Shown here: positions 11,925 to 34,567 of the stretch, piece by piece
Position numbering within the stretch: position 1 is the stretch's first letter
How the letters are laid out: each line of letters opens with the position of its first letter
DNA from: Alphaproteobacteria bacterium
GTDB taxonomy: Bacteria; Pseudomonadota; Alphaproteobacteria; SHVZ01
NCBI GenBank assembly: GCA_044223515.1
Contig: JBGALV010000002.1
Coordinates: 64,015 to 128,014 of the forward strand
Direction: 5' to 3'
Length of the DNA stretch: 64,000 bases
The notes under the pieces: generated by a model
The model's input: only the letters and a program-made list of their open reading frames with translations
Told to the model about the DNA's origin: nothing
The model's database searches: none
Program-made: the position numbers and the translations under genes

Positions 11925-11930
11925 CTAGGC

Positions 11931-14088: not shown

Positions 14089-14329
14089 CGACGTCTCCCC
14101 CTATGGCCTGAGCACGGCCGCTACAGTTGCGATAGCCGGTTTCTTGGATCGTTTCGGACCACGAAACCTTTCATTTATTTAAACTTAGTCTAGCGAGAGC
14201 CTGTCATTGAAGGCAAGCAACTCCGGCGCTAAACTGCAGCCGTATTTCTCATGGGTCGTCGTTCCGGAAATGTTACCGCTACCATAGCGGCATCGAGGCA
14301 GGCGCCGAGCGCCCAGCGGAGTCCAAGGC

Positions 14330-15232: not shown

Positions 15233-15259
15233 CCGCGCTCCCGCTTTCAGTTATGCCGA

Positions 15260-15292
15260 GCCGCCCGCAACACTCATTGCGGGCGGCTTTTT
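15260..15292 (+). terminator. Intrinsic terminator after second phyH
   Basis: Stem GCCGCCCGC-aacactcatt-GCGGGCGGC, then TTTTT. Confidence 0.6.
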
Positions 15293-15308
15293 CATGTCCG
15301 GAGTCTCC

Positions 15309-16553: not shown

Positions 16554-16564
16554 ATCGAGTTGCC

Positions 16565-17611: not shown

Positions 17612-17675
17612 AGGCAAATCTCCGAGGTTGAGGCGCACCCGCTATCAGGGCGTCGTGCGCTCAACTCGGAGGTCG

Positions 17676-17704
17676 CAGAAAAGTTCCCCTTTCAGAGGGA
17701 ACTT
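17676..17704 (-). terminator. Intrinsic terminator downstream of the sugar-phosphate isomerase gene
   Basis: Perfect palindrome AAGTTCCC-ctttcaga-GGGAACTT, followed on the minus strand by TTTTCT. Confidence 0.6.
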
Positions 17705-17719
17705 GTCACTGGTTGCGGC

Positions 17720-18586
17720 CTACTCCGCCGCCTTCGCCGCCCCCTGCTCCTCGGCCTCGATCCGCTTCCAGAGCGCGCGGACCATGTCCTTCATCATGAG
17801 GGCTTCCTGCCATCGGTCGGACAGATCCTCGTCGTTCCGGTCGACGATGGCGTATGGCCGCGGCCCCATCTCGCAAAGGAAGGTCAGCGTGCCGTCCTTC
17901 GGTGCACGTCGGCGCCAGGAACGGATGCCGTTTTCCCACCAGCCCATGAACAGGTCGACCCACGGCTTATGGTGCGGGAAGCTGATCGGAACCTGGATCT
18001 GTTCGCGGCTGGCGACGCGACCGTGGAAGCCCCAGCAATTGTCGAGGATCCGGTGCATCAGCTTGTGGTTCTCCTCGCTGATCGGCGGCCCGGCGAACTC
18101 GCGCCCGACAAGATAGTGGGAGATGTCGCCGGTCAGCTTCAGGTCCGGGAAGCAGTCGAGCAGATGCAGCGTGAAGAACAGGTCGGTCGTCATGCGGTCG
18201 CGATGCGTCTCGATGTGCATGCGCACGCCAGCCTCGTTCGCCAGCCGGCGCCACCCCTCGATATAGGGGATGCACTCCTCGATCCGATACGGCCGCACGT
18301 CCGGCTGCAGATTCAGGTGCTCGGCACCGAGCTTGGCGACGTTGTCGAGGATCGGCTTCAGGTCGTCGACCGTCTGCGGATAGCACTGCGCCTGCCAGGT
18401 GAGACCGTAGTCCTTGAGGATGGTCGTATGCGCCTTCGCCTGCTCGAAGTCGAAGAAGCGGACGCCGGCGCCGTCGAAGCCGGCGTCGCGGATCATCTTG
18501 AGCTTCTCTTCGAGCGTCCACTCCTTGCCGTCCGGAGCACGACGCTCCATCGCCCACATCGACTGGTAGACGAGCAGCTTCTGCAT
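17720..18586 (-). CDS. sugar phosphate isomerase/epimerase (xylose-isomerase-like TIM barrel) family protein
   Basis: 288 aa with the ..HIETHRDR../..DISHY.. metal-ligand pattern typical of the AP endonuclease 2 / xylose isomerase-like fold. Confidence 0.6.
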   Translation of the reverse strand: MQKLLVYQSMWAMERRAPDGKEWTLEEKLKMIRDAGFDGAGVRFFDFEQAKAHTTILKDYGLTWQAQCYPQTVDDLKPILDNVAKLGAEHLNLQPDVRPYRIEECIPYIEGWRRLANEAGVRMHIETHRDRMTTDLFFTLHLLDCFPDLKLTGDISHYLVGREFAGPPISEENHKLMHRILDNCWGFHGRVASREQIQVPISFPHHKPWVDLFMGWWENGIRSWRRRAPKDGTLTFLCEMGPRPYAIVDRNDEDLSDRWQEALMMKDMVRALWKRIEAEEQGAAKAAE

Positions 18587-18608
18587 GTCGTTCCCTCCGT
18601 TAGCCGCT

Positions 18609-19441
18609 TCAGGCGAGCCCGGCGGCGTGATGCTTCAAGTGGTCTTCGACGAAGGTCTGGATGAAGTAGTAGCTGTGGTCGTAGCCTGCGTGCCGGCGAA
18701 GCTCCAGCTTCTGGCCCGATGCCTTGGCCGCCTCCTCGAACAGCTCAGGCTTGAGCTGCTCGACCAGGAACTTGTCGGCCAGACCCTGATCGATGAGGAT
18801 CTTGCCGGCCAAGGGCTTCTTCTTCACGAGCTCGGACGCGTCGTAGTCGCGCCAGCCCGCCTGGTCGGGGCCGAGATATCCGGAGAACGCCTTCTGGCCC
18901 CAGGGGCAGCGCATCGGCGCCACGATCGGCGCGAAGGCTGAGACGGTCCGGTACTTGTCGGGGTTACGCAGCCCGAGGACCAGCGCGCCGTGTCCGCCCA
19001 TCGAATGTCCGAAGATGCCCTGGCGGTCCGCTTTCGCCGGGAACGAGCCGTCGATCAGCGTCCTAAGCTCGCTCGTAACATAGGCGTACATCCGGTACGC
19101 CTGCTTCCACGGCTCGGCCGTGGCGTCGACGTAGAAGCCGGCGCCGATGCCGAAGTCCCAGTTCGCATCGTCGCCCGGAAAGCGGGCGGCGCGCGGGCTG
19201 GTATCCGGCATCACCAGCATCAGGCCGAGCTCAGCGGCAACGCGCTGAGCTCCGGCCTTGATGGTGAAGGTCTCCTCCGTGCAGGTGAGACCAGCAAGGT
19301 AGGTGACGACCGGCACCTTGCCTTTGGCCGCCTGGGGCGGCTTGTAGACGGCGAACCGCATAGGCCCGCCGACGGCCTTGGACTCGTGCTTGTAGAAGCC
19401 CTGGGTGCCGCCGAAGCAGGCCTGCTCGGAGATCGTCTCCA

Positions 19442-19442
<1 letters not shown>
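18609..19442 (-). CDS. fghA: S-formylglutathione hydrolase (esterase D)
   Basis: METISEQACFGGTQGFYKHESK..., the GHSMGGHGAL nucleophile elbow and 278 aa are classic for FrmB/FghA. The ATG overlaps the adhC stop (ATGA). Confidence 0.9.
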
Positions 19443-20551
<1,109 letters not shown>

Positions 20552-20695
20552 GTCTGGTTTCCTCACCCGGATTCGTTGACGGCCGATCTTAAGGCCGCGA
20601 GCGAGGATAGCGGCACCGGATTTGCCGCGCCATGGAACCGGCTACCGCGCCGGGGGTTCTCCCAGGACCATAACAATGAAAGAACGGAGACACCG

Positions 20696-20854
20696 ATGAG
20701 CGTCGGTACCATTCTCCTGATCATCCTCGTCATCCTGCTGATCGGCTCGCTGCCGACCTGGCCCTACAGCTCCGGCTGGGGCTACTACCCGACCGGCGGT
20801 CTTGGGACCATCCTGGTCATCGTCATCATCCTGCTGCTGATGGGACGCATATAG
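20696..20854 (+). CDS. DUF3309 family small membrane protein
   Basis: MSVGTILLIILVILLIGSLPTWPYSSGWGYYPTGGLGTILVIVIILLLMGRI (52 aa) is the canonical DUF3309 pattern. A GGAGA RBS is present. Confidence 0.75.
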   Translation: MSVGTILLIILVILLIGSLPTWPYSSGWGYYPTGGLGTILVIVIILLLMGRI

Positions 20855-20875
20855 GGCCTCCCTCCCGCCTTCCCT

Positions 20876-20918
20876 GGCCGCCTCGGTTTCCCTCCCCGAG
20901 GCGGCCGGATCGGTTTTG
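20876..20918 (+). terminator. Intrinsic terminator after DUF3309 gene
   Basis: Stem GGCCGCCTCGG-tttccctcc-CCGAGGCGGCC, then GGATCGGTTTTG. Confidence 0.6.
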
Positions 20919-20962
20919 CTCTCCTACCTCCGGAATCCAACCAGCAACCGGCTATTTATCTA

Positions 20963-21018
20963 GCAACGCAAGTAGTTGCCGCGCGCCGGACCCTCTGTCA
21001 TAAAATTGTAACTGACAG
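20963..21018. promoter_or_regulatory. Candidate operator palindromes upstream of the ABC operon (GCAAC-N7-GTTGC and CTGTCA-N12-TGACAG)
   Basis: Two dyads sit in the 190-nt leader before the permease ATG at 21045. The second is AT-rich at its centre (TAAAATTGTAAC). Confidence 0.4.
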
Positions 21019-21044
21019 GCGACGACGGATTCACGGCGGGGGCG

Positions 21045-22895
21045 ATGACGACGACGGCCGGGACGAAACACGCGCCGCTCGTCTTCGCGCTGAGACGTCT
21101 CGGCGCTCGACCGGAACTCATTCTCGGCAGTCTGCTGACGCTGGTCCTAGGCCTCCTCGTTCTCACGCCGCTTGCCGAGGCACTTCACGACGCTTTTACC
21201 TACCAGCCCTACGACCTCGCCTACCGTCGCGACGCGGAGGTCGGCAGCTTCACGCTCTTCCATTTCGAGCGCATCTTCGCCGGGCAGCTGTCGCTCGCAC
21301 TCTTCTATCGCCCGTTTCTCAACAGCCTGATCGTTGGCGTAGGCGTCACCGCGATTGCGATCGTGGTCGGCACCGGGCTCGCCTGGCTGATGGTGCGGAC
21401 CGACATGCCCGGCCGCTCGTTCTTCGGCTTCCTCGCCGTCGTTCCCTACATGATGCCGTCCTGGGTCCTGGCGCTGGCCTGGCTCAGCCTGTTCCGCAAC
21501 AGCCGCTACGGCGGCGGCGACGGCATGGTCACCTACTTCTTCGACGTCGAGCCCGCGAACTGGTTCTCCTACGGGCTCCTGCCGATCGTCATCTGCCTTG
21601 CTCTCCACTATTACGCCTATGCCTTCCTGCTGATGGGCGGCGCGATGGAGAGCGTCGACTCCGAGCTCGAGGAGGCCGGGGCCACCTCCGGCATCCCGAA
21701 ATTCAAGCGCCTGATGCTGATCACCGTGCCGCTCCTGCTGCCGGCACTGGGATCGGCGATCGTCATGACCTTCATCCGCGTGCTCGGCACCTTCGGCACG
21801 CCGGCGCTGCTGGGCCTGCCGGTCCGCTTCTTCACCTTCTCGACCCAGATCTATGCCGCGCTCAAGTCCAGGAACGCTGGCGATGGCTTCGTCCTGGCGC
21901 TGGTGCTGGTGGTCATGGCGATCCTGTTCATCCAGATCAACAGCCGCATCGTCGGCGTGCGCAAAAGCTTCGTCACGCTCACCGGCAAGGGCTTCCGGCG
22001 CCGCCCCGTCCGGCTTGGCGCCTGGCGCTGGCCGATGGTCGGGCTGGTCACGCTGTTCATGCTGATCGTCGTTGCGTTCCCGATGATGATCCTGGTCTGG
22101 GAATCGCTGATGTTCCGGGCCAACGACTACAGCCTGGGAAACCTGACGCTCCACTACTGGATCGGCGGCGCCACCGAGTCCCTGCAGACCGGCGATCCCG
22201 GGATCCTCAACAACCCGCGCATCCACGAGGCGCTTTGGAACAGCCTCAAGCTGGGATTCTCGGCATCGATCGTGAACGGCCTTCTCGGCCTGCTGGTCGG
22301 ATATGCCATCGTCCGTAGCCGCGGCAGCCTGATGGCGAAGGCGCTCGAAGGCATTTCGTTCGCCCCCTACATCTTCCCGTCGATCGCGCTCGGCGCGATC
22401 TACATTGGCATCTTCGCTCGCAGCTACGGGCCGCTTCCGGCACTCTATGGCACCTTCACTCTCCTCGTGCTGATCACGGTGGTGAAGAACCTGCCGTTCA
22501 CGGCACGAACCGGCATGGCCGCCATGCACCAGATCGACAAATCGCTGGAGGAGACGGCGCGGGTCCAGGGCATCGGCTGGCTCCGCCGCATGTGGCAGAT
22601 CATTCTGCCGATGTCGCGCAGCGGCGTGGTCGCCGGCATGCTGCTGACCTTTATCTCGGCAATGCGCGAGCTGTCGCTGATCGTCCTGCTGGTGACGCCG
22701 TCGACCATGGTGCTGCCCGGGCTGATCTACGGCTACCAGGAGCAGAATCAGCCACAGCACTCGAGCGCGGTGTCCCTGATGCTCGTCTTGATCATCTTCG
22801 TCGTCAACGGCTTGGTCCGGCTGACCACCGGACAGAGCTTCTCGAGCCGGAAGAAGCCCGACGTCGATCGGGCCGAACGGGCGGTCGCCCATTGA
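21045..22895 (+). CDS. ABC transporter permease, fused tandem (Fe3+/2-AEP/spermidine-type, two TMD repeats)
   Basis: 616 aa with two copies of the BPD-transporter inner membrane domain and its EAA loops. Layout resembles FbpB/SfuB. Confidence 0.8.
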   Translation: MTTTAGTKHAPLVFALRRLGARPELILGSLLTLVLGLLVLTPLAEALHDAFTYQPYDLAYRRDAEVGSFTLFHFERIFAGQLSLALFYRPFLNSLIVGVGVTAIAIVVGTGLAWLMVRTDMPGRSFFGFLAVVPYMMPSWVLALAWLSLFRNSRYGGGDGMVTYFFDVEPANWFSYGLLPIVICLALHYYAYAFLLMGGAMESVDSELEEAGATSGIPKFKRLMLITVPLLLPALGSAIVMTFIRVLGTFGTPALLGLPVRFFTFSTQIYAALKSRNAGDGFVLALVLVVMAILFIQINSRIVGVRKSFVTLTGKGFRRRPVRLGAWRWPMVGLVTLFMLIVVAFPMMILVWESLMFRANDYSLGNLTLHYWIGGATESLQTGDPGILNNPRIHEALWNSLKLGFSASIVNGLLGLLVGYAIVRSRGSLMAKALEGISFAPYIFPSIALGAIYIGIFARSYGPLPALYGTFTLLVLITVVKNLPFTARTGMAAMHQIDKSLEETARVQGIGWLRRMWQIILPMSRSGVVAGMLLTFISAMRELSLIVLLVTPSTMVLPGLIYGYQEQNQPQHSSAVSLMLVLIIFVVNGLVRLTTGQSFSSRKKPDVDRAERAVAH

Positions 22896-22916
22896 TCGGT
22901 AGGTAAGGAGGACACC

Positions 22917-24155
22917 ATGAGGATGTTCAAGCGCGCATTCCTGGCGACCGTTGCAGCGGCGGCTCTGGCATTCGCCGCTCCCGCCATCGCCCAGGACAAA
23001 GTCCCGGCCGACATCGACGCCTGGATGAAGCAGGCGAAGCTCGGCGCCTACGACGTCAGCGAGAACTGGGACGAGGTGATCAAGAACGCCAAGGCCGAGG
23101 GCGCCCTGGTGATCTACTCGTCCTCATCACGCATGAGCAAGGTCGCGCAGTGGTTCATGGAGGTCTATCCGGAGATCAAGGTCTCGGCCTTCGACCTCGG
23201 CTCGACCCAGACGATCGAGAAGACGATCCGCGAGCAGGACGCCAAGCAGTACAACGCCGACATCGTCACCACCGGCGGCTCGGGCGAGATCGTCCACGAC
23301 ATGATGAAGAAGCACCGGCTCTTCAACTACGTGCCGAAGCACTTCGTCGACAAGATCCCGAAGGAGAATCGCGAGCCGCTGCTGGTGCGCGTCAACGAGG
23401 CCGTGGTCTTCTTCTATTCTGGCGAGGCCTGGCCGAACGAGCAGCCGATCAAGAACATCTGGGAACTGACGCTGCCCAAGTGGAAGGGCCGCGTCGGAAT
23501 CAAGGACCCGCTCGACTCAGGCTCGCTGTTCATGGGCATCGCCACCTACGTCCAGCACAAGGACGAGATGGCCGCCGCCTACAAGCGCATGACCGGCCAG
23601 GACATCAAGCTTTCGCCGGGCGTGCCGGATGCCGGGCATGAATGGCTCTACCGGCTGCTCAAGAACGATGCGATCCCGAACAAGTCCGGTCCGAAGCTGA
23701 TCGCTGCGGCCGGCACCAAGGGTGCCCGCAACCCGATGATCGCCATGTCGAACATGACGCACATCTCGTACAACGACGAGTACGGTCTCGTGAACAAGAT
23801 GGTGGTCGAGCTCGATCCGGCGGCGAAGATCGTCTACCCGACCTACACGGCGATCGCGCGCTTCGCCAAGCACCCGAACGCGGCGAAGCTGTTCACCGCC
23901 TACTCGCTCGGCTCGACGCAGCTTACCAAGGACACGAAGATCGAGAGACCCTACGACAAGGGCAAGAGCCGCGACCTGCTCCTGGGCTTCGCGCCGTTCT
24001 TCGACCCGGGCTCGGTAAGCCCGCGAAACGACGTACCGCTGCCCCCGGGCGGCGAGGCCTGGGACAAGATGGCCGGCTGGATCGCCGATCCGGACTATCT
24101 CTGGTTCGAAAGCGCCAAGGTCCGCGACTTCTACATCCAGCACGTCTCGCCTTAA
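22917..24155 (+). CDS. ABC transporter periplasmic substrate-binding protein (SBP family 1, Fe3+-type)
   Basis: Signal peptide ...AFAAPAIAQD. 412 aa, cluster-D SBP size and context. Confidence 0.7.
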   Translation: MRMFKRAFLATVAAAALAFAAPAIAQDKVPADIDAWMKQAKLGAYDVSENWDEVIKNAKAEGALVIYSSSSRMSKVAQWFMEVYPEIKVSAFDLGSTQTIEKTIREQDAKQYNADIVTTGGSGEIVHDMMKKHRLFNYVPKHFVDKIPKENREPLLVRVNEAVVFFYSGEAWPNEQPIKNIWELTLPKWKGRVGIKDPLDSGSLFMGIATYVQHKDEMAAAYKRMTGQDIKLSPGVPDAGHEWLYRLLKNDAIPNKSGPKLIAAAGTKGARNPMIAMSNMTHISYNDEYGLVNKMVVELDPAAKIVYPTYTAIARFAKHPNAAKLFTAYSLGSTQLTKDTKIERPYDKGKSRDLLLGFAPFFDPGSVSPRNDVPLPPGGEAWDKMAGWIADPDYLWFESAKVRDFYIQHVSP

Positions 24156-24164
24156 GTCACCGGC

Positions 24165-25250
24165 ATGGAAGAGATCCAGCTGAGGGGCGTGGCCAAGGCC
24201 TATGGCCGCGCCCCTGCCGTGCGGAACCTGGACCTGACGGTCCCACCCGGCGAGTTCCTGACCATCCTCGGCCCTTCGGGCTGCGGAAAGACTACGACGC
24301 TTCGCATCGTCGCCGGGCTCGAGGACCCGGACCAGGGTCAGGTCCAGCTGGGTTCGCGTCTCGTGTTCTGCCGAGACCAGGGTGTTCTCGTGCCGCCGGA
24401 AAATCGGCAGCTCGGCCTGATCTTCCAGAGCTACGCACTCTGGCCGCACATGACCGTGGCGAGGAACGTCACTCTCGCCTTGAAGGAAAGGCGCCTTGCA
24501 GCGCACGAGATCGCCCGTCGCCTCGACGACGCGCTCGAGCGCGTGCAGCTCGGCCCGATGCGCGATCGCTATCCTTCGGAGCTTTCAGGCGGACAGCAGC
24601 AGCGCGTCGCCGTCGCACGGCTGATCGCGCTCAAGCCGTCGATCCTCCTGATGGACGAGCCGCTCTCCAACCTGGACGCCGTTCTCCGGACGGAGATGCG
24701 CGGTGAGCTTCGTCGGCTGCACCAGGATCTCGGCGCCACCACGATCTATGTGACGCACGATCAGGTGGAGGCGCTGACGCTTTCCGACACCATCGTCATC
24801 ATGAACGAAGGTGTGGTCGAGCAGCGAGGATCGCCCTACGACACCTATCACCGCCCGGAGACGCTGTTCGTCGCCGAGTTCATCGGGGATCCCCGCATCA
24901 ACCGAGTCGACGGGCGCCTGTCCGGCGACCGCGGTGCCGACTTCGGCGACTTCTCGCTCGCGCTGGACCAGCCACTCTCCGCAAAGAGTGGCGAAGTCAT
25001 CGGGACGATCCGCCCCGAGATGATCTCGTTGTCGCAGAAGGAAGCGGCCGGCGCGATCCCGGTCACGATCGAGACCATCCAGCCGACCGGCTCGCAGACC
25101 ATCCTGCACGTGCGGAGCGCCGGACGCCCCTACACAGTGCTCCAGTCGGGCTTCGTCCGTGCACGCCCGGGTGACACGGCTTGGCTCTCATTCGATGCGG
25201 CGTCGTTCAATTTCTTCGACCCGGCAAGCCGGCGGCGCATCGGCCCCTAG
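24165..25250 (+). CDS. ABC transporter ATP-binding protein with C-terminal TOBE domain
   Basis: Walker A GPSGCGKTT, signature LSGGQQQRVAVARL and Walker B LLMDEPLSNLD. Confidence 0.85.
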   Translation: MEEIQLRGVAKAYGRAPAVRNLDLTVPPGEFLTILGPSGCGKTTTLRIVAGLEDPDQGQVQLGSRLVFCRDQGVLVPPENRQLGLIFQSYALWPHMTVARNVTLALKERRLAAHEIARRLDDALERVQLGPMRDRYPSELSGGQQQRVAVARLIALKPSILLMDEPLSNLDAVLRTEMRGELRRLHQDLGATTIYVTHDQVEALTLSDTIVIMNEGVVEQRGSPYDTYHRPETLFVAEFIGDPRINRVDGRLSGDRGADFGDFSLALDQPLSAKSGEVIGTIRPEMISLSQKEAAGAIPVTIETIQPTGSQTILHVRSAGRPYTVLQSGFVRARPGDTAWLSFDAASFNFFDPASRRRIGP

Positions 25251-25864
25251 GCCAGAGGACCGTCCGCTTCCTCAATCTTCCTGATCCAGCCGGCCGCACG
25301 CTTCACCGCATCGAGCAACATCGGCTTAGGCGTCTCGAACCATTCGTCGGGCTGAAGCTCGCGGTGATGGCGGATATGCGCCAGCGCCGCATCGATGGTC
25401 GGGAACTGCTTCGGCAGCTGAATGTGCAGGTAGAGCGCCACCAGCGCCACCGACCGGCTGCGCCCGCCCCGGCAGTGGACCAGGATGTTGCCGCGCTCGC
25501 GCCTCGGATAGCTCGGCTTCTCGGGCAGCTCCTGATGGGCCGCGCCGTAGAGGAGATAGTAGCCGGCCAACATCATGCTCTCGGGATTGCCCGCCCCGTC
25601 GACGAGTCCGAGCTTGTAGGACCGGATCGCACCGGTTCCGGCCGCGCACTGCATGCCGGCCGCCGGGATGCTCGGCTCGGTGACGTAGTTGATGTCGAGG
25701 TTGACGGCGCAGTTCACCACCGTGGTGATGCCGTTCTCCTTCAGCAACGCGAGGTCCCGAGCACCTTCCGTGTCGCCGATATAGAGCTTGGCTCCGTAGG
25801 GCGGCAGTCCCTCGGCGATCAGGCTGACGGCAGGACGCTCATAGACCGGAGCTTCGATCGCCAT
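25247..25864 (-). CDS. dual-specificity / tyrosine-type protein phosphatase (CX5R family)
   Basis: P-loop VHCRGGRSRS (HCxxGxxR[ST]) with an upstream Asp. 205 aa, convergent with the ABC operon. Confidence 0.7.
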   Translation of the reverse strand: MAIEAPVYERPAVSLIAEGLPPYGAKLYIGDTEGARDLALLKENGITTVVNCAVNLDINYVTEPSIPAAGMQCAAGTGAIRSYKLGLVDGAGNPESMMLAGYYLLYGAAHQELPEKPSYPRRERGNILVHCRGGRSRSVALVALYLHIQLPKQFPTIDAALAHIRHHRELQPDEWFETPKPMLLDAVKRAAGWIRKIEEADGPLA

Positions 25865-25963
25865 GGAAGTCGATTTTCCTGACAGGAAATATATTTTCCG
25901 GGAGTTGACCCGCCCGGTCGCGCCGTTATCATCGGGCGTCCCCTCCCTCGGAGACTACGAAAA

Positions 25964-26863
25964 ATGTGCGGGATCGTCGGCCTCTTCCTCAAGGATCCGA
26001 AACTCGAGCCCGACCTCGGGCGGCTCCTGTCCAACATGATGGGGGTGCTATCAGATCGCGGCCCCGACAGCGCCGGCTTCGCGGTCTTCGGCCGCGGCCA
26101 GTCCGGCAACGTCAAGCTGACGGTGCGTGGCGCCGAGGGAACCGACTTCGCGGCCCTCGCCCGCAAGCTCTCCGAGGCGCTCGGCACCAAGGTCGCCGCC
26201 GTAGGCCGGCATACCCATGGCATCCTGACCCTGCCGGCGGACCGCGAGGCCGACGCCAAGGCGGCGCTGGCCAGGATCGCCCCGAAGATCGACCTCGTCG
26301 GTGCCGGCGCCCGCATGGAGCTCTACAAGGAGGTTGGCCGGCCCGAGCTGGTTGCGACCCAGTTCGGCCTCGAACGCATGCCCGGCACCCACGGCATCTG
26401 CCACACGCGCATGGCGACAGAATCGGCAGTGACCACCAACGGCGCACACCCCTTCTCGACCGGGCTCGACCAGTGCCTGGTCCACAACGGATCTCTCTCC
26501 AACCACAACGCCGTCCGCCGCGACCTGCGCCGTGACGGCATCGAGTTCGCGACCGAGAACGACACCGAGGTCGCAGCCGGCTACCTCACCGCCCGCATGC
26601 ACAAGGGTGCCAGCCTCAAGCAGGCGCTGACCGACGCGCTGACCGATCTCGACGGCTTCTACACCTTCGTCGTCGGGACCGAGTCCGGCTTCGGCGTGCT
26701 GCGCGATCCGATCGCCTGCAAGCCGGCGGTGATGGCCGAGACCGACCGCTACGTCGCCTTCGGCTCCGAATATCGCGCGCTGGTCGACCTCCCGGACATC
26801 GGCAAGGCGAAGATCTGGGAGCCGGAACCGGCCACCGTCTATTTCTGGGAGCGGCCGAATTGA
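25964..26863 (+). CDS. mgsA: class-II glutamine amidotransferase subunit (N-methylglutamate synthase subunit A-like)
   Basis: Starts MCGIVG (Ntn-hydrolase Cys1). At 299 aa it is a GltB N-domain standalone. It heads a four-gene set with GXGXG, FMN and GS-like genes. Confidence 0.7.
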   Translation: MCGIVGLFLKDPKLEPDLGRLLSNMMGVLSDRGPDSAGFAVFGRGQSGNVKLTVRGAEGTDFAALARKLSEALGTKVAAVGRHTHGILTLPADREADAKAALARIAPKIDLVGAGARMELYKEVGRPELVATQFGLERMPGTHGICHTRMATESAVTTNGAHPFSTGLDQCLVHNGSLSNHNAVRRDLRRDGIEFATENDTEVAAGYLTARMHKGASLKQALTDALTDLDGFYTFVVGTESGFGVLRDPIACKPAVMAETDRYVAFGSEYRALVDLPDIGKAKIWEPEPATVYFWERPN

Positions 26864-27552
26864 ACGCGAGCGAGCAGGTCGTCGATCTTTCGACGACCGA
26901 ACTGAGAGAGCTGAATTCCGCCCTTCACAAGCTGAAGCCCGACACCAACCAGACGCTTTGGCGCATCTCCAATCCGCGTGGCCGCCATTCTGTCGCGGTC
27001 GGCGTGGATGCGCCGGTCACCATCGAGATCGACGGCCATGTCGGCTACTACTGCGCCGGCATGAACAAGCATGCGACGGTGATCGTCAATGGTAACGCCG
27101 GCACCGGCGTCGCCGAGAACATCATGTCGGGCACCGTGCATGTGAAGGGCGATGCCAGCCAGTCGGCAGGTGCCACCGGCTGCGGCGGCATGCTGATCAT
27201 CGACGGCAACGCCTCTGCCCGCTGCGGCATCTCGATGAAGGGCGTCGACATCGTGGTGAAAGGCAGCGTCGGCCATATGTCGGCGTTCATGGCCCAGGCG
27301 GGAACCCTGGTCGTGCTCGGCGATGCAGGCGAGAGCCTCGGCGACTCGATCTACGAGGCGCGCCTTTATGTACGCGGCAAAGTGCAGGGCCTCGGCGCCG
27401 ACTGCATCGAGAAGCCGATGACCGATCATCACAAGGCCAAGCTCGTCGCCAAGCTGAGATCCGCCGGCGTCACCGGTGTCGATGTCGGCGCCTTCAAGCG
27501 CTACGGATCGGCTCGCCGCCTCTATCACTTCCACGTCGACAACGTGTACTGA
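26860..27552 (+). CDS. mgsB: glutamate synthase GXGXG-domain subunit (N-methylglutamate synthase subunit B-like)
   Basis: 230 aa with repeated GxGxG beta-helix motifs (VNGNAGTGV..KGDASQSAGATGCGG..). The start overlaps the mgsA stop. Confidence 0.7.
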   Translation: MNASEQVVDLSTTELRELNSALHKLKPDTNQTLWRISNPRGRHSVAVGVDAPVTIEIDGHVGYYCAGMNKHATVIVNGNAGTGVAENIMSGTVHVKGDASQSAGATGCGGMLIIDGNASARCGISMKGVDIVVKGSVGHMSAFMAQAGTLVVLGDAGESLGDSIYEARLYVRGKVQGLGADCIEKPMTDHHKAKLVAKLRSAGVTGVDVGAFKRYGSARRLYHFHVDNVY

Positions 27553-27555
27553 GCC

Positions 27556-28878
27556 ATGAGCCAGCCGATCACCACACCCCGCAAGTCGGCGACCTTCGAC
27601 GACTACACGCTGTCCGAGATCCGCCGCGCCGCGTCGACCGGGATCTACGACATCCGCGGCGCCGGCGCCAAGCGCAAGGTCCCGCATTTCGACGACCTGC
27701 TTTTCCTCGGCGCCTCGATCTCGCGATATCCGCTCGAAGGCTATCGCGAGCGCTGCGGCACCAACGTCATTCTGGGCGCGCGCCATGCCAAAAAGCCGAT
27801 CGAGCTCAAGATCCCGATCACCATCGCCGGCATGAGCTTCGGCTCGCTCTCGGCGAACGCAAAAGAAGCGCTCGGCCGTGGTGCCTCGATGGTGGGAACC
27901 TCGACCACCACCGGCGACGGCGGCATGACGCAGGAAGAACGCGGCCACTCCTCGCTGCTGGTCTACCAGATCCTGCCGTCGCGCTACGGCATGAACCCCG
28001 ACGACCTTCGACGGGCGGACGCGATCGAGATCGTCGTCGGCCAGGGTGCGAAGCCCGGCGGCGGCGGCATGCTGCTGGGGCAGAAGATCACGGAACGGGT
28101 CGCCGGCATGCGCGTGCTGCCGGTCGGCATCGACCAGCGCTCTGCCTGCCGCCACCCGGACTGGACCGGCCCGGACGATCTCCAGATCAAGATCGAGGAA
28201 GTCCGCGAAATCACCGATTGGGAGAAGCCGATTTACGTCAAGGTAGGCGCATCCCGCCCCTACTACGACACGGCACTGGCTGTGAAAGCGGGCGCCGACG
28301 TGGTCGTGCTCGATGGCATGCAGGGCGGTACGGCCGCGACCCAGGAAGTCTTCATCGAGAATGTCGGCCTGCCGATCCTGTCGGCGATCCGGCCGGCGGT
28401 GCAAGCGCTCATCGATCTCGGCCTGCACCGGAAGGTGCAGCTGATCGTCTCCGGCGGCATCCGCAACGGCGCCGACGTGGCGAAGGCATTGGCGCTCGGC
28501 GCCGACGCCGTCGCGATCGGCAGCGCGGCGCTGGTCGCGCTCGGCGACAACGATCCGGCGCTCGAGGCGGAGTACGCGAAGCTCGGCACCACCGCCGGCG
28601 CCTATGACGACTGGCACGAGGGCCGCGATCCCGCCGGCATCACCACTCAGGACCAGGCGCTGATGGCGCGGCTCGATCCGGTGAAGGCCGGTCGCCGGCT
28701 CGCCAACTACCTCGCCGTGATGACGCTGGAGGCGCAGACGATCGCGCGCGCCTGCGGCAAGAGCCACGTGCACAATCTCGAGCCCGAGGACCTGGTGGCG
28801 CTGACCATCGAGGCGGCGGCGATGGCACGGGTCCCTCTTGCCGGTACGAACTGGGTACCCGGCGGAGGCTCGTTCTAA
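27556..28878 (+). CDS. mgsC: glutamate synthase FMN-binding domain subunit (N-methylglutamate synthase subunit C-like)
   Basis: 440 aa, homologous to the GltB FMN/TIM-barrel domain (GMSFGSLS..VVGQGAKPGGGG..SGGIRNGADVAKALALGADAV). Confidence 0.7.
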   Translation: MSQPITTPRKSATFDDYTLSEIRRAASTGIYDIRGAGAKRKVPHFDDLLFLGASISRYPLEGYRERCGTNVILGARHAKKPIELKIPITIAGMSFGSLSANAKEALGRGASMVGTSTTTGDGGMTQEERGHSSLLVYQILPSRYGMNPDDLRRADAIEIVVGQGAKPGGGGMLLGQKITERVAGMRVLPVGIDQRSACRHPDWTGPDDLQIKIEEVREITDWEKPIYVKVGASRPYYDTALAVKAGADVVVLDGMQGGTAATQEVFIENVGLPILSAIRPAVQALIDLGLHRKVQLIVSGGIRNGADVAKALALGADAVAIGSAALVALGDNDPALEAEYAKLGTTAGAYDDWHEGRDPAGITTQDQALMARLDPVKAGRRLANYLAVMTLEAQTIARACGKSHVHNLEPEDLVALTIEAAAMARVPLAGTNWVPGGGSF

Positions 28879-28901
28879 GCAAGACGAACAGGGGGACTGT
28901 C

Positions 28902-30203
28902 ATGGCGACGGATCTGGCGAAGGCGGCGAAGGAACGAGGGATCAAGTACTTCATGATCTCCTACACCGATCTCTTCGGGACCCAGCGGGCGAAGCTGGTG
29001 CCGGCCGCGGCGATCGGAGCGATGCAGAAGTCGGGCGCGGGATTCGCCGGGTTCGCCACCTGGCTCGACATGACACCGGCCGATCCCGATCTCTTCGCCG
29101 TTCCAGATCCCGACAGCCTGATCCAGCTCCCGTGGAAGCCGGAGGTCGGCTGGCTCGCCTCGGATCTCGTCATGGACGGAAAGTCCGTCGAGCAGGCCCC
29201 ACGCAATCTCCTGAAGCGCCTCGTCGCCGAAGCCGCCTCCAAAGGCTTCGAGATGAAAACAGGCGTCGAGTGCGAGTACTTCCTGATCACGCCGGACGGC
29301 ACCCAGATCTCCGATCCTGCCGACCATCAGGCCAAGCCCTGCTACGACCAGTCGGCGCTGACCCGGCGCTACGATGTCGTCACGGAAATCTGCGATGCGA
29401 TGCTGGCGCTGGGCTGGAAGCCCTATCAGAACGATCACGAGGACGGGAACGGCCAGTTCGAGATGAACTGGGAATACGACCATGCGCTCATCACCGCCGA
29501 CCGCCACGCCTTCTTCAAGTACATGGTCAGAACCATCGCGGAGAAGCACGGGCTCCGCGCCACCTTCATGCCGAAGCCGTTCATCAACCTGACCGGCAGC
29601 GGCTGCCACGCCCATGTGTCGCTGTGGAAAGGGAAGAAGAACCTGTTCGAGGATCCGAAGGGAGAGCTAGGCCTCTCCTCCCTTGCCTACCAGTTCCTCG
29701 GCGGCATCGTTCACAACGCCGAGGCGCTCTGCGCGCTGACCAATCCGACGGTGAACTCCTACAAGCGTATCAACGCGCCGGTGACGACATCGGGTGCAAC
29801 CTGGTCGCCGAATACGGTGACCTACGCCGGCAACAACCGCACCCACATGATCCGCATCCCGGAGCCGAACCGCTTCGAGTTCCGTCTGCCGGACGGTGCG
29901 GTCAATCCGTACCTGCTGCAAGCCTCGCTTCTAGCCGCCGGCCTCGACGGCATCGCCAACAAGCGCGATCCAGGCAAGCGCCTCGACATCAACATGTACA
30001 CCGAGGGGCATACGGTGAAGGGCGCCAAGCGCCTGCCGCTCAATCTGCTCGACGCGCTCCGCAACCTCGAGAAGTCGGCTGTGTTGAAGGCCGGTCTCGG
30101 CGAGGCCTTCATGAGTTCATATCTCAAGCTCCGCCATGCCGACTGGAACGACTACGCCCGCCACCTGACCGAGTGGGAGCGGCGGACGACGCTCGACTGC
30201 TGA
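28902..30203 (+). CDS. gmaS: glutamine synthetase family gamma-glutamyl-amide synthetase (gamma-glutamylmethylamide synthetase-like)
   Basis: 433 aa with GS catalytic motifs (..GVECEYFL..; ..NPTVNSYKRI..; ..RIPEPNRFEFR..). It lacks the adenylylation loop and sits directly after the mgsABC-like genes. Confidence 0.7.
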   Translation: MATDLAKAAKERGIKYFMISYTDLFGTQRAKLVPAAAIGAMQKSGAGFAGFATWLDMTPADPDLFAVPDPDSLIQLPWKPEVGWLASDLVMDGKSVEQAPRNLLKRLVAEAASKGFEMKTGVECEYFLITPDGTQISDPADHQAKPCYDQSALTRRYDVVTEICDAMLALGWKPYQNDHEDGNGQFEMNWEYDHALITADRHAFFKYMVRTIAEKHGLRATFMPKPFINLTGSGCHAHVSLWKGKKNLFEDPKGELGLSSLAYQFLGGIVHNAEALCALTNPTVNSYKRINAPVTTSGATWSPNTVTYAGNNRTHMIRIPEPNRFEFRLPDGAVNPYLLQASLLAAGLDGIANKRDPGKRLDINMYTEGHTVKGAKRLPLNLLDALRNLEKSAVLKAGLGEAFMSSYLKLRHADWNDYARHLTEWERRTTLDC

Positions 30204-30847
30204 TGGCAGCGCGCAAACCTATACCGAAGCGCGGCGACCTCGCGACCGGGTCGAGCGCGCCGAACTCCGCCGAGCGGCGCACGGTCGAGGAAGCGGTCGG
30301 CATCCGCGTCCGCGCATTACGCAAGCGCCTCGACATGACCGTCGCCGAACTCGCCGGCCAGGCCGGGCTTTCGGTCGGCATGCTGTCGAAGATCGAGAAC
30401 GGTGCGACCTCGCCGTCGCTGACGACGCTGCAGGCTCTGGCGGACGCCTGCAACGTGCCGATCTCCAGCCTGTTTGCCGAACTCGAGGAAGCCCGCGACT
30501 GCTCTTACGTCCCGCGCGGCCAGGGCGTCACCATCGACCGGCGTGGCACCAAGGCCGGGCACCAGTACCAGCTTCTCGGCCACTCGCTCCGCGGCGATGT
30601 CGTGGTCGAGCCCTACCTGATCACGCTGTCGAAGGAAGCCGAGCCCTACGCCAACTTCCGCCATGCCGGCGTCGAGGTCATCTACATGCTCTCAGGCGCC
30701 GTCGCGTATCGTCACGCCGACAAGGTGTACGACCTCGGCCCCGGCGACACCCTCTTCTTCGACGCCGGGGCGCCGCATGGTCCGTCGATCCTGACCAAGC
30801 TTCCCAGCCAGTACCTCTCGATCATCATCTACCCGCGCGACGCCTGA
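30203..30847 (+). CDS. XRE-family HTH plus cupin domain transcriptional regulator (PuuR-like)
   Basis: HTH LDMTVAELAGQAGLSVGMLSKIENG, then a cupin (..GDTLFFDAGAPHG..). The ATG overlaps the gmaS stop (TGATG). Confidence 0.75.
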   Translation: MAARKPIPKRGDLATGSSAPNSAERRTVEEAVGIRVRALRKRLDMTVAELAGQAGLSVGMLSKIENGATSPSLTTLQALADACNVPISSLFAELEEARDCSYVPRGQGVTIDRRGTKAGHQYQLLGHSLRGDVVVEPYLITLSKEAEPYANFRHAGVEVIYMLSGAVAYRHADKVYDLGPGDTLFFDAGAPHGPSILTKLPSQYLSIIIYPRDA

Positions 30848-31494
30848 GCTTCGGGCCACCCGAGAATCCCACTCGCCATCCGGGCCAACAGGATGACCAG
30901 GCCGATCGTGACCGCATGGACGCCCAGATCCATGAAGGTCACGTCGAACGGATGGAAGAACTGCAAAAGCACCGCCGCGATTGCAGCCACGCCGAGCCCG
31001 CCTGACACCGCGACCGGTGTCGGGTTCAGCGGCCGTGCCTTGGAAAGGACCAGGAGGAGTGCGGCACCGAGCGGCAGGCTGACGCCGAGCAGTAGGCGGA
31101 AACAGTCCGTGCTCTCGCCGAGCGTCCAGCCATCGGGGCCGAAAAGGATCCAGTGCTGCCAGCAGCTGTAACCGCTGGAGGCGATCCACAGGACCAGCGG
31201 CGGGATCGGCAGCCAAGCCCAGGACATCGACCGATCCGGCAGGCTGAGGTGGAAGGCGGCGACTATCGCCGCGATGCCGGTCAGCACGGTGCCGGCGAGT
31301 TCCAGGCGCAGCTTCGTTTCCTCGATGCGAGACATGAAGAGGGGCAGGTCGGCAAAGCTCGCAACCCCCAGCGCCGAGGCGAGGGCGACCACGCCCAGCC
31401 ACAAGCTTGCCCGCGTCGTCGGCGAGCGCAGACGCCTGACCGGGCGGCCGTCGGCAGCTAGATTCGCTATCAAGTCGTCGAGAGGCTCGGCCAT
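30829..31494 (-). CDS. nrsF: NrsF-family (DUF1109) membrane anti-sigma factor
   Basis: 221 aa with six TM segments and an N-terminal cytosolic region. It lies immediately downstream of, and coupled to, the ECF sigma gene, the same arrangement as Caulobacter sigF-nrsF. Confidence 0.75.
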   Translation of the reverse strand: MAEPLDDLIANLAADGRPVRRLRSPTTRASLWLGVVALASALGVASFADLPLFMSRIEETKLRLELAGTVLTGIAAIVAAFHLSLPDRSMSWAWLPIPPLVLWIASSGYSCWQHWILFGPDGWTLGESTDCFRLLLGVSLPLGAALLLVLSKARPLNPTPVAVSGGLGVAAIAAVLLQFFHPFDVTFMDLGVHAVTIGLVILLARMASGILGWPEAQASRG

Positions 31495-31495
31495 C

Positions 31496-32062
31496 CTATC
31501 CGCCCTTCAGCTTGGCCCGGAGCGCCTTGATCGCCCGGTGCACGTTGACCTTGAGACCCCCGACCGACTGGCCGCTCACCGCCGAGGCCTCCACCAGCGA
31601 CATCTCCTTCAGCTTCACCAGCTCCAGCGCCTCCCGCTGCCCGCGCGGAAGAGCCGCCAGCGCCGCAGCCAACTGGTCCGTCGCCTCGCGACCCTCCAGC
31701 TCCCTGTTCGCCAGGGGGTCGGCAAAGGTTTCATAAGAAGTGTCGTCCCGGATCTCCATCGTCTCGGTCCGGGTCCGGCGGCGGATCGCGTCGATCGAGC
31801 GGCGCCGAGCAACCGCCACCAGCCAGGGCATGAATGGCCGGCCAGGGTCGTAGGTGTGGCGGATGCGGTGGAGGGTCAGCAGCACGTCTTGGACGACGTC
31901 GTCGACCCGGTCCGCTCTTCGATGGTGATGGGCAACGACCGCACGCACCATCGGCACGATCTCCTTCAGCAGGCGCGCATAGTCCGCCTGATTGCCGTCC
32001 TGCGCCGAGGTCATCAGACCTACCCAACGCGGCTCGTCGCTCTGCCGCCCGCCTGCCGCCAT
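31496..32062 (-). CDS. sigF: ECF RNA polymerase sigma factor (SigF-type)
   Basis: Region 2 (DDVVQDVLLTLHRIRHTYDPGRPFMPWLVAVARRRSIDAIRR) and region 4 (LPRGQREALELVKLKEMSLVEASAVSGQSVGGLKVNVHRA) are present. Confidence 0.8.
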   Translation of the reverse strand: MAAGGRQSDEPRWVGLMTSAQDGNQADYARLLKEIVPMVRAVVAHHHRRADRVDDVVQDVLLTLHRIRHTYDPGRPFMPWLVAVARRRSIDAIRRRTRTETMEIRDDTSYETFADPLANRELEGREATDQLAAALAALPRGQREALELVKLKEMSLVEASAVSGQSVGGLKVNVHRAIKALRAKLKGG

Positions 32063-32106
32063 CCGCTCCTTCCCGGTTCACACACGCGTGACCACGATCG
32101 CCCTCT

Positions 32107-32131
32107 GTAACTTCCGCCGACATTCGGCGAA
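32107..32131 (+). promoter_or_regulatory. Candidate SigF-type ECF promoter (GTAACT-N15-CGAA) upstream of bufA
   Basis: tGTAACTtccgccgacattcggCGAAcc lies ~70 nt upstream of the bufA ATG. It matches the GTAACC-N16-CGAA pattern I recall for Caulobacter sigmaF-dependent promoters. That recollection is unverified. Confidence 0.4.
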
Positions 32132-32199
32132 CCGAAGGGCATGGGACGCCGGCAGGGGCCGACGCTTCCCCTCACCGAAGCATAAGAGGAGTTCGTAAC

Positions 32200-32481
32200 A
32201 TGCAGAAGCCTTCGCTCAAGACCGTCGCCGGCTCTACCCTTCTCGGCGCGCTCGCCGTCGCCGTCGTCTCGGTTGCCGCCGCCCAGGCGGCACCGGTCGC
32301 GCAGCCGATGGGATCGGAGAAGTGCTACGGCATCGCCAAGGCCGGCAAGAACGACTGCGCCGCCGCCGGCGCTCATTCCTGCGCCGGTCAGGCGACCAAA
32401 GACATGGACAAGGCCTCCTACGTCTACCTGCCGGCCGGCCTCTGCGCCAAGATCGCCGGCGGCAACATGGGGGCGATGTAA
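32200..32481 (+). CDS. bufA: DUF2282-family secreted Cys-containing precursor peptide (bufferin BufA1-like RiPP precursor)
   Basis: 93 aa with Sec signal peptide ...AAAQA, then a core with 4 Cys in conserved spacing (EKCYG, NDCAA, HSCAG, GLCAK). An AGGAG RBS is present. Confidence 0.75.
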
Positions 32482-32518
32482 GTCCGTATCCGCGCCGCCT
32501 GCTCGGAAGCTCACCGGC

Positions 32519-33376
32519 ATGTCCACCGATCGCATCCCGGCGTCCGCCGGCATCGGCCTCCGCTTCCCGCATCATCGGGAAGTCGCGGCAGAGCCCGGAG
32601 GCATCGCCTGGGTCGAGGTCCATCCGGAGAACTACATGGCGGGCGGCGCGGTGCTCGACCTGCTCGTCTCAATCCGCCGGGATCTGCCCGTCTCGCTTCA
32701 TGGCGTCGGGCTCTCGCTGGGGAGCGCCGCCGGCCTCGACCGCGATCATCTCGCGGGCCTCAGGAAGATGATCGACCGGATCGAGCCGGGGCTCGTTTCC
32801 GATCACCTTTCCTGGAGCGTCGCCGGTGGCGTCTATCTGCCCGACCTCCTGCCGCTTCCCTATACCGAGGAAGCGCTCGCGGTCGTCGCGGCCAACATCG
32901 ATCGCGCGCAAGAGGCGCTGAAGCGGCCGCTGCTGATCGAGAACCCGTCGCGCTATCTCGACTTCAAGCATGCGACCCTGTCCGAGGCCGAATTCCTGAC
33001 CGCGCTGGTGGAGCGTACCGGCTGCCGCCTGCTCTACGATCTCAACAACCTGCTGGTGAGCGCGCGGAACCTCGATAAGGATCCGCTCGCGTCCCTGTTC
33101 TCGATCCCGCTCGACGCAGTCGCCGAAATCCACCTCGCCGGGCATGCACGCAAGCGGCTCGACGACGGCAGCGAGATCCGGATCGACGACCATGGATCGG
33201 CGGTGTCGCCGGAAGTCTGGGATCTCTACAGCCGCTTCATCCATCGCGCCGAAGCGGTTCCGACGCTGATCGAATGGGACACCGCGCTGCCCGCCTTGAC
33301 GGTGCTGTGTGCCGAAGCGGCCAAGGCCCAGAGGTTCCTGGACATCGCCTCGACCGGAGAGCGTCGTGTCGCCTGA
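32519..33376 (+). CDS. bufB: DUF692 / MNIO (multinuclear non-heme iron oxidase, MbnB-TglH family) peptide-modifying enzyme
   Basis: TIM-barrel xylose-isomerase-like DUF692 motifs (GIGLRFPH..EVHPENYM..VSDHLSW..HLAGH..IEWDT). Confidence 0.8.
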   Translation: MSTDRIPASAGIGLRFPHHREVAAEPGGIAWVEVHPENYMAGGAVLDLLVSIRRDLPVSLHGVGLSLGSAAGLDRDHLAGLRKMIDRIEPGLVSDHLSWSVAGGVYLPDLLPLPYTEEALAVVAANIDRAQEALKRPLLIENPSRYLDFKHATLSEAEFLTALVERTGCRLLYDLNNLLVSARNLDKDPLASLFSIPLDAVAEIHLAGHARKRLDDGSEIRIDDHGSAVSPEVWDLYSRFIHRAEAVPTLIEWDTALPALTVLCAEAAKAQRFLDIASTGERRVA

Positions 33377-34112
33377 TCTCGCGACGCTGCAAGCCGACAT
33401 CGTGCGCATGATCCTCGCCGATGGCCGGATGGTTCCTTCGTTCCTGGACGACGACGCCGGGCTTAGGCTCGCCGTCTATCGCAACACCGCGCTCAGCGGC
33501 CTCTGCGACGCGCTCAGGCTCAGCTATCCACTGATCGAAAAGGTCGTCGGCACACCGTTCTTCGACCAAACCGCGCTCGCCTTCGCACGCGTGAACCCGC
33601 CGGCGGATCCGGTACTCGCCCGCTACGGCGCCGGCTTTCCGGCCTTCCTGGAATCCCTGTCGAGCCTCGCCGCCCTTCCCTACCTGCCGGACCTCGCCCG
33701 GCTCGAGTGGGCCATCGACCAAGTAGGCTACGAACCAACGGTGGAAGATCGCGGCGTCACGCTCGAGGTCGAAGGGCGCATCGCGACCGTGACGCTTAGC
33801 CCCTCACTCCGCCTGCTCGCGACGGCCACGAGCGTCCTCCCGCTCTGGCGGGCGCTCGACGCCGGCGACGACGAAGGGCTCGGAGCCGTGGACTGGAACG
33901 CCGGCCCGCAATTCCTGGCCGTCCACTATGGCAAGGACGGCGTCCGGATCACGCCGCTCTCGGAATCGGCGTGGCGCCTCGCCGCCGCTCTCCTCGCCGG
34001 CGACGATCTCGACATGGCGACCGAAGCAGCCGAGGCCGCGATCGAGCTTCTCTCCACCCCTTTCATTCGCATCGCCATAGCCGATCCTGACGGATCGATG
34101 AGGATCTCATGA
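33366..34112 (+). CDS. bufC: DUF2063 family protein (MNIO partner, BufC/MbnC-like)
   Basis: Follows DUF692 with an overlap. Sequence VSPDLATLQADIVRMIL...; the DUF2063-after-DUF692 architecture is conserved. The start is probably the GTG at 33366. Confidence 0.65.
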   Translation: MSPDLATLQADIVRMILADGRMVPSFLDDDAGLRLAVYRNTALSGLCDALRLSYPLIEKVVGTPFFDQTALAFARVNPPADPVLARYGAGFPAFLESLSSLAALPYLPDLARLEWAIDQVGYEPTVEDRGVTLEVEGRIATVTLSPSLRLLATATSVLPLWRALDAGDDEGLGAVDWNAGPQFLAVHYGKDGVRITPLSESAWRLAAALLAGDDLDMATEAAEAAIELLSTPFIRIAIADPDGSMRIS

Positions 34113-34567
34113 GCACGCTTGCCGCCGCCGGGTCGAACAGCCTCGGCCGTTCCGTCCGTACCGTCATCTCGGCCCTGGACGGGCTTCCCTGGACCGTCCT
34201 CGCTTTGCCGATGCGCCTCGCCGGCTTCGCCGTATTCTGGCGCGCCGGCATGGTCAAGCTCGCCAGCTGGGAGAGCACAGTCCTGCTGTTCCGTGAGGAG
34301 TACCAAGTGCCGGTGCTGCCGCCGGAGCTGGCGGCTTATCTCGCCACATCCGTCGAGCTCGGCTGCGCGATCGCGCTTCTGCTCGGGCTTCTGACGCGGT
34401 TCTCGGCGCTGGCGCTGCTCGGCCTGACCTCCGTGATCCAGCTCTTCGTCTATCCGGAGGCCTGGCCGACCCACATCCAATGGCTCGCCTTCCTGCTGCC
34501 GCTCCTCGCCCGCGGCGCCGGCGACCTGTCTCTCGATCATCTGATCGCCCGCAGGCTTGCCCGCTGA
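34109..34567 (+). CDS. DoxX family membrane protein
   Basis: 152 aa with 4 TM helices and DoxX-like sequence (..FAVFWRAGMVKL...LLGLTSVIQLFVYPEAW). Coupled to bufC (ATGA). Confidence 0.75.
   Translation: MSTLAAAGSNSLGRSVRTVISALDGLPWTVLALPMRLAGFAVFWRAGMVKLASWESTVLLFREEYQVPVLPPELAAYLATSVELGCAIALLLGLLTRFSALALLGLTSVIQLFVYPEAWPTHIQWLAFLLPLLARGAGDLSLDHLIARRLAR

Follow-up and report, generated by a model that had tools for sequence, protein, structure and literature searches.

Within a 64,000-nucleotide stretch of an alphaproteobacterial genome (contig JBGALV010000002.1, positions 64,015 to 128,014; hereafter the window), five co-oriented genes encode proteins related to the N-methylglutamate (NMG) pathway of methylamine utilization. 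On the plus strand, mgsA (glxB; 25964-26863, 299 aa) encodes the N-terminal nucleophile (Ntn, class II) glutamine-amidotransferase-like subunit of NMG synthase with the N-terminus MCGIVG, mgsB (glxC; 26860-27552, 230 aa) encodes the GXGXG-domain subunit from a TTG start that overlaps the mgsA stop by 4 nt, and mgsC (glxD; 27556-28878, 440 aa) encodes the subunit with the glutamate-synthase domain that binds flavin mononucleotide (FMN). They are followed by gmaS (28902-30203, 433 aa; legacy name glnT, 'GSIII') for γ-glutamylmethylamide synthetase and by xre (30203-30847, 214 aa), a regulator gene with an XRE-type helix-turn-helix (HTH) and a cupin domain, whose ATG overlaps the gmaS stop codon (TGATG); in the list of open reading frames (ORFs) the regulator appears solely as the final part of a longer, spurious ORF (28838-30847). 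Because the spacing from mgsA through mgsB, mgsC and gmaS to xre is tight (-4, +3, +23 and -1 nt) and the block contains no plus-strand terminator-like site, the five genes look like one operon. All four enzyme ORFs show the strong third-position GC bias that is typical of real genes in this genome, and the G + C content is approximately 65% across the window with no compositional break at the locus. An earlier interpretation of this DNA, made from the letters alone (the sequence-only reading), had described four enzyme genes of these sizes and order with coupled starts, and the ORFs were found exactly where it had placed them.

The 433-aa ligase was assigned by family models, structural homology, and active-site residues. 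In the NCBIfam search it scored 682.6 bits against TIGR03105 (cut-off 469.6), and Pfam gave Gln-synt_C (E = 5e-97), while it failed the models of GlnA (TIGR00653; 293 bits, cut-off 429) and of the γ-glutamylputrescine synthetase PuuA (267 bits, cut-off 650). Its top match among solved structures was PDB 7CQL (E = 1.6e-201, 672.8 bits), which, despite its deposition as 'type III glutamate--ammonia ligase', is the biochemically characterized GmaS of Rhodovulum sp. 12E13 (RhGmaS; PMC7948447), and the two proteins were 66.8% identical in a global alignment. The roles of the RhGmaS residues are known from mutagenesis (PMC7948447), and all 17 active-site residues named in that study for the binding of ATP, glutamate, Mg2+, and methylamine and for catalysis were identical in the window ligase, including K30', E122, Y147, Y174, Q175, D177, E179, E186, N188, W189, Y191, H237, S239, R312, and R317; the set that forms the methylamine pocket and the catalytic site (K30', Y147, Q175, D177, E179, E186, N188, and R312) is thereby complete. 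Among 84 GmaS homologues, 16 of the 17 positions were invariant and Tyr191 was replaced with Phe in eight. Furthermore, the ammonium-binding Asp50' of glutamine synthetase (GS) is replaced with Ala (Ala49) and the catalytic Glu of the Glu-flap with Trp (Trp301). By its sequence, the 433-aa protein is GmaS and not GlnA, PuuA, or an IpuC-like enzyme; the PuuA/IpuC clades and the true GlnA clade, both of which the sequence-only reading had held open for this protein, thus fall away. By analogy with the characterized orthologues, methylamine would be its preferred substrate and γ-glutamylmethylamide its product, formed at the expense of ATP.

As a reference set we used 80 genome loci (L003-L082) with 72-97% GmaS identity, obtained by scanning a genome collection with GmaS and annotated in tblastn searches whose queries were the window proteins together with the Mgd (NMG dehydrogenase), GlxA, and PurU proteins of Rhizobium etli. 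The R. etli plasmid pRetIE4803a (CP007642.1) carries soxG-soxA-soxD-soxB (minus strand, equivalent to mgdDCBA), glxA, an XRE gene, glxB, glxC, glxD, glnT, and purU, and this arrangement, XRE regulator included, is the canonical complete NMG cluster. The window encodes orthologues of GlxB (62% identity), GlxC (65%), GlxD (85%), GlnT (70%), and the XRE protein (52%). At the related loci, the identities were 50-71% for MgsA (L004-L082; 94% in L003), 60-79% for MgsB, and 72-89% for MgsC, and the trio was 62-89% identical to the copies from 40 loci at which mgd is adjacent. In Pfam searches MgsA matched GATase_6 (E = 2.8e-18) and GATase_7 (E = 5.6e-16), its MCGIVG N-terminus being the Ntn-nucleophile signature with an N-terminal Cys; MgsB matched GXGXG (PF01493, E = 5.5e-11), and MgsC matched the FMN domain Glu_synthase (PF01645, E = 3.9e-85). 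Three separate subunits with the Ntn amidotransferase, GXGXG, and FMN glutamate-synthase domains thus adjoin gmaS, as in MgsABC. The large-subunit model of GltB gave only 123 bits (cut-off 1047), and the window genes that were scanned with Pfam included none for a GltD-type NAD(P)H small subunit. On this evidence the trio is mgsABC (= glxBCD) and not the bona fide split glutamate synthase (GOGAT) that the sequence-only reading had weighed as a counter-possibility, and that reading's assignment of mgsABC-gmaS to the NMG pathway is strongly supported by family models, orthology, and active-site residues.

The regulator matched HTH_3 (E = 2.9e-15) and Cupin_2 (E = 8.8e-11) in Pfam. It had been called PuuR-type, with a hint at amines other than methylamine; however, it failed the PuuR model (NF007408; 49 bits, cut-off 211), with which it has only the domain architecture in common, and it is 56-69% identical to the XRE proteins encoded beside mgsA elsewhere. 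An orthologue lies beside mgsA in 60 of the 80 related loci, including loci with adjacent mgdABCD, and an XRE regulator has been reported as conserved in the methylamine clusters of 103 genomes (PMC13199381). Because the PuuR model failed and the orthologues sit in canonical NMG loci, the regulator is, as far as homology can tell, a normal companion of NMG genes and gives no hint of polyamine-type chemistry. It is a different protein from TmaR, the AraC-type regulator of Ruegeria pomeroyi (PMC13390433). Its gene position is uncommon, because xre lies 3' of gmaS, overlapping the stop codon, and not 5' of mgsA, an order that, apart from the window, was seen only in L003, with a similar one in L032.

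Upstream of mgsA, a sigma-70-like promoter (TTGACC-16-TATCAT, 25905-25932, plus strand) matches 10 of 12 consensus positions and is the sole such promoter between 25200 and 31600. The perfect palindrome TTTCCTGACAGGAAA occupies 25875-25889, its first base lying 89 nt 5' of the mgsA start codon and its last base 16 nt 5' of the -35 hexamer, and an extra half-site TTTCC is situated between palindrome and hexamer at 25895-25899. Searched with at most one mismatch, TTTCC-N5-GGAAA was present in 39 of 69 mgsA upstream regions, while it was absent within two mismatches from all 76 control windows inside mgsC. The relaxed form TTTCY-N5-RGAAA occurred as a perfect match in 37 of the 69 regions, in every case 79-115 nt 5' of the start codon, versus 6 of 1660 random 200-bp windows of the same loci. 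For the 55 of 69 loci that have a site with at most one mismatch, the alignment revealed a common layout of palindrome, five to six AT-rich bases, TTC, approximately seven bases, and the TTGAC of the -35 hexamer, and in related loci TTGAC keeps a fixed distance from the palindrome. L003 retains this architecture although blastn left its promoter region unaligned to the window. The palindrome is a likely operator of the XRE-cupin regulator, a pairing that, like the effector, we infer; no description of this site was found in the methylamine-cluster literature examined. A second perfect TTTCC-N5-GGAAA (TTTCCGATCGGGAAA) lies at 6971-6985, flanked by a minus-strand gene for an HpcH-family aldolase and a plus-strand gene for a PhyH-family dioxygenase, and probably has no connection to the NMG regulator; when up to one mismatch is allowed, the motif has three matches in the window versus 0.66 expected.

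The sequence-only reading had also stated that the NMG dehydrogenase genes mgdABCD are not in the window, and this was confirmed. Tblastn with the R. etli proteins SoxB/D/A/G-2 (= MgdABCD) gave no match at E ≤ 1e-8 in the whole 64 kb, no ORF of approximately 980 aa is present, and Pfam revealed no sarcosine-oxidase-type subunits, FolD, or PurU among the other gene-like ORFs of the window. The absence spans 26 kb upstream and 33 kb downstream of the operon. We rejected the idea that a DAO-family gene (9040-10143) supplies a substitute NMG oxidase, since its product, the only DAO-family protein in the window, is ThiO-like (173 bits, cut-off 250) and gave no tblastn match to MgdA; its neighbours are TRAP-transporter, enolase-superfamily, and PhyH genes.

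An unlinked dehydrogenase is common among the relatives. In the 80 loci, mgsABC was adjacent to gmaS in 71, the XRE-cupin gene was present in 60, and mgdABCD in 40; the corresponding numbers for the 50 loci with full flanks of ±10 kb were 49, 43, and 27, so that mgd is missing near the module in 23 of 50 (46%). When ORFs were clustered across these 23 unlinked loci, solely the five core genes recurred, and no conserved substitute oxidase or dehydrogenase was found beside the mgd-less modules. In Methylobacterium, gmaS occurs in all strains and mgsABC in most, and the strains of groups II and III have gmaS and mgsABC while mgdABCD is missing genome-wide (PMC5017803); consistent with this report, M. 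oryzae (L048) and M. mesophilicum (L040), whose GmaS proteins are 75% identical to that of the window, were among the mgd-less loci. The suggestion that the missing mgd is a sign of something unusual or of another amine therefore does not hold, given the 23 similar loci and this precedent. Among GmaS relatives whose contigs are long enough for a judgement, the nearest (L004, L005, L007, L009, L010, and L013; 78-80% identity) have mgd adjacent, directly following gmaS in L005, L007, and L009, and therefore the unlinked state in the window is probably derived. Separately, the conjugative plasmid pLVM1 of Methylobacterium sp. DM1 (CP029174.1, L002) carries at 9549-19294 xre, three unnamed genes (hypothetical, oxidoreductase, and hypothetical), mgsABC, and gmaS, with an 'aldehyde-activating protein' and a globin 3' of gmaS; the block is flanked by insertion sequences and has no mgd gene within 14 kb, making it a mobile mgd-less module.

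Compared with known systems, the window has the same four enzyme families as the NMG genes of R. pomeroyi, Aminobacter sp. NyZ550, Methylobacterium extorquens, Methyloversatilis universalis, and Methylocella silvestris, its gene order mgsA-B-C-gmaS is that of most alphaproteobacterial loci, and the promoter and palindrome architecture is shared as well. It differs from those NMG loci in that mgdABCD is not adjacent and in the position of the regulator gene, and from R. etli and the homologous Rhizobium and Sinorhizobium plasmid loci in lacking GlxA (AraC/DJ-1-type), the soxBDAG-like mgd, and purU. The closest parallel in content is the xre-mgsABC-gmaS core without a neighbouring NMG dehydrogenase in Methylobacterium groups II and III (M. 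oryzae and M. radiotolerans; PMC5017803), although there the absence of mgd is genome-wide and the growth phenotype was tested, whereas the evidence for the window covers 64 kb. With the E. coli PuuR/PuuA system, the module shares an HTH_3-cupin regulator and a GS-superfamily ligase that γ-glutamylates an amine; however, both E. coli models scored far under their cut-offs, no puuBCD-type genes are present, and the partner is a split glutamate synthase and not an oxidase or hydrolase. In a megablast search of plasmids, matches were confined to the four enzyme genes (73-79% identity) and came from replicons of Rhizobium, Sinorhizobium, Methylobacterium, and Azospirillum. A plasmid origin of the window was rejected, no plasmid record covering at least 80% of the query, and the window is, judging from its gene content, chromosomal because housekeeping genes (plsX, fabH, IHF/HU, and the PhyR system) occur in the rest of it.

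[quoted passage not shown] It is a new copy of a known system, and the mgd-less pattern has already been published. For the enzymes and intermediates of the pathway, this account follows PMC13390433 and PMC5017803. GmaS would first join methylamine to the γ-carboxyl of glutamate at the expense of ATP to give γ-glutamylmethylamide. MgsABC, a glutamate synthase split into Ntn amidotransferase, GXGXG, and FMN subunits, would then turn γ-glutamylmethylamide (or methylamine and glutamate) into N-methylglutamate with release of ammonia. The regulator probably binds TTTCY-N5-RGAAA upstream of the mgsA -35 hexamer, and its cupin domain may sense a pathway metabolite. Regeneration of glutamate and release of the one-carbon (C1) unit would need the NMG dehydrogenase MgdABCD, encoded elsewhere in the genome or absent. 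In R. pomeroyi, gmaS-mgsABC are co-transcribed and induced by methylated amines (PMC13390433).

Several observations weigh against this interpretation. With mgdABCD lacking, the 64 kb cover only part of the NMG pathway, and two mgd-less Methylobacterium strains that have gmaS and mgsABC showed no growth when methylamine was the carbon source (PMC5017803). As for the regulatory part, an Aminobacter mutant with a double xre deletion had no growth phenotype on methylamines (PMC13199381), and the palindrome and an adjacent xre co-occur weakly, the palindrome being found in 35 of 59 loci with xre versus 2 of 10 without (Fisher p = 0.037).

The alternatives differ in what they make of the missing dehydrogenase and of the substrate. 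The genome might truly be without mgdABCD and the xre-mgsABC-gmaS core might work alone, scavenging methylamine nitrogen as the ammonia freed at the NMG synthase step, with N-methylglutamate excreted, accumulated, or oxidized by an unrelated enzyme. The 64 kb without mgd, the 23 full-flank loci in the same state, the recurrence of the five core genes as a unit in them, and the genome-wide lack of mgdABCD in Methylobacterium groups II and III all speak for such a module. However, the absence is established for the 64-kb window only, the nearest judgeable relatives have adjacent mgd, no candidate replacement oxidase is conserved beside the unlinked modules, and without Mgd one glutamate would be spent per ammonia, so that no net nitrogen is gained unless N-methylglutamate is recycled; we consider this possible but rather unlikely. 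A bolder version, to which we give still less credence, holds that the organism has no mgdABCD anywhere and that the five-gene core is self-sufficient and widespread, with an output other than methylotrophy and with XRE-cupin control at the TTTCY-N5-RGAAA/TTC/-35 arrangement. In that case the core could free ammonia from methylamine, leaving N-methylglutamate as an end product or a signal; alternatively, an unrecognized enzyme could oxidize the N-methylglutamate.

A further alternative, in line with the sequence-only reading, is that the substrate is another primary amine, for instance ethylamine, ethanolamine, or a polyamine. This view draws on the HTH-plus-cupin architecture in common with PuuR and on an upstream ABC transporter that is weakly PhnU2-like and PotA-like. 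We regard this as very improbable, since every methylamine-pocket residue of RhGmaS is retained here and is invariant in the 84 homologues whether mgd is linked or not, the PuuA and PuuR scores are far under their cut-offs, and canonical NMG clusters have orthologues of both the regulator and the promoter; the transporter, moreover, is missing at this position in L003 and is separated from the operon by an opposite-strand gene. Least credible of all is auxiliary ammonium assimilation, a view that follows NCBI product names in taking GlnT for a 'glutamine synthetase III' and GlxBCD for a split glutamate synthase. TIGR03105 does bear the name 'type III glutamate--ammonia ligase', and homologues are annotated as glnT and glxBCD in plasmid records. 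However, the protein of the same name in 7CQL is a demonstrated GmaS, the GS residues for ammonium binding and Glu-flap catalysis are replaced in the window ligase, the GltB and GltD evidence is negative as described above, and the homologues are often linked to mgdABCD and purU.

Under the preferred interpretation, as an NMG module with unlinked mgd, genes that carry the pipeline annotation 'type III glutamine synthetase' or 'glutamate synthase family' should be read as genes for methylamine γ-glutamylation and NMG synthase, and the organism is likely a methylamine user, at least for nitrogen. The occurrence of the xre-mgsABC-gmaS core without a nearby dehydrogenase in nearly half of the related genomes raises the question of what role mgd-less modules play, and the conserved palindrome with its half-site beside the -35 hexamer offers a concrete candidate binding site for the conserved XRE-cupin regulator.

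The surroundings were compared with L003, a 'Rhodospirillaceae bacterium' metagenome-assembled genome and the closest relative (GmaS 97% identical in amino acids; 89% nucleotide identity on both sides of the segment described below). L003 has the same order of mgsABC, gmaS, and xre, followed by genes for NrsF and an extracytoplasmic function (ECF) sigma factor on the opposite strand. L003 1-2503 aligns to window 18349-20850 and L003 2648-9304 to window 25964-32621, and by this alignment the segment at about 20851-25870 (approximately 5 kb, versus L003 2504-2647) was either inserted here or lost from L003. It contains an FbpB/PhnU2-like fused ABC permease, a 412-aa substrate-binding protein with a signal peptide, a generic ATPase, and an opposite-strand DSPc (dual-specificity-phosphatase-like) gene; the binding protein had no Pfam or NCBIfam match and weak similarity to iron-binding proteins. 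The transporter was rejected as the amine importer of the module, because the phosphatase gene intervenes and the segment is missing in L003; it is not beside the module in the other 79 loci (L004-L082) either.

Formaldehyde detoxification genes upstream had been taken to fit C1 release. The genes are real, frmA at 19442-20566 (minus strand; TIGR02818, 623 bits, cut-off 544) and fghA at 18609-19445 (minus strand; TIGR02821, 456 bits, cut-off 282), and lie 5.4 kb from mgsA; however, they adjoin the operon only in the window and in L003 and not in L004-L082. A functional partnership of frmA-fghA with the operon thus finds no support beyond this lineage-specific adjacency, which is at most a weak link to C1 detoxification. 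In L003, frmA-fghA and a small hydrophobic ORF, which we take to be DUF3309-like, directly abut the mgsA promoter.

Downstream of the operon, the gene for the anti-sigma factor NrsF (30829-31494, minus strand) overlaps the end of xre by 19 nt with its stop region and is followed by the ECF sigma factor gene (31496-32062, minus strand), which is divergent from the genes at 32200-34567. These plus-strand genes encode a DUF2282 small protein (32200-32481), an MbnB/TglH/ChrH-family enzyme (within ORF 32273-33376), a DUF2063 protein (33309-34112), and DoxX (34109-34567). Together with the divergent ECF sigma-NrsF pair, they presumably represent a 'bufferin' cluster, a copper-stress cluster for ribosomally synthesized and post-translationally modified peptides under SigF-NrsF control. 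Farther downstream, a general-stress-response locus (45144-47992) comprises a PhyR-type response regulator (47045-47992, minus strand), an ECF sigma factor (45144-45782), and two PRC-barrel proteins, and a further ECF sigma factor at 42404-43027 was grouped with it. Two minus-strand ORFs at 17720-18586 (288 aa) and 16565-17638 (357 aa) combine a strong coding signal with no Pfam match at E ≤ 0.01; the 288-aa ORF, which had no NCBIfam match either, is kept beside fghA in L003 with 96% identity over the part present.

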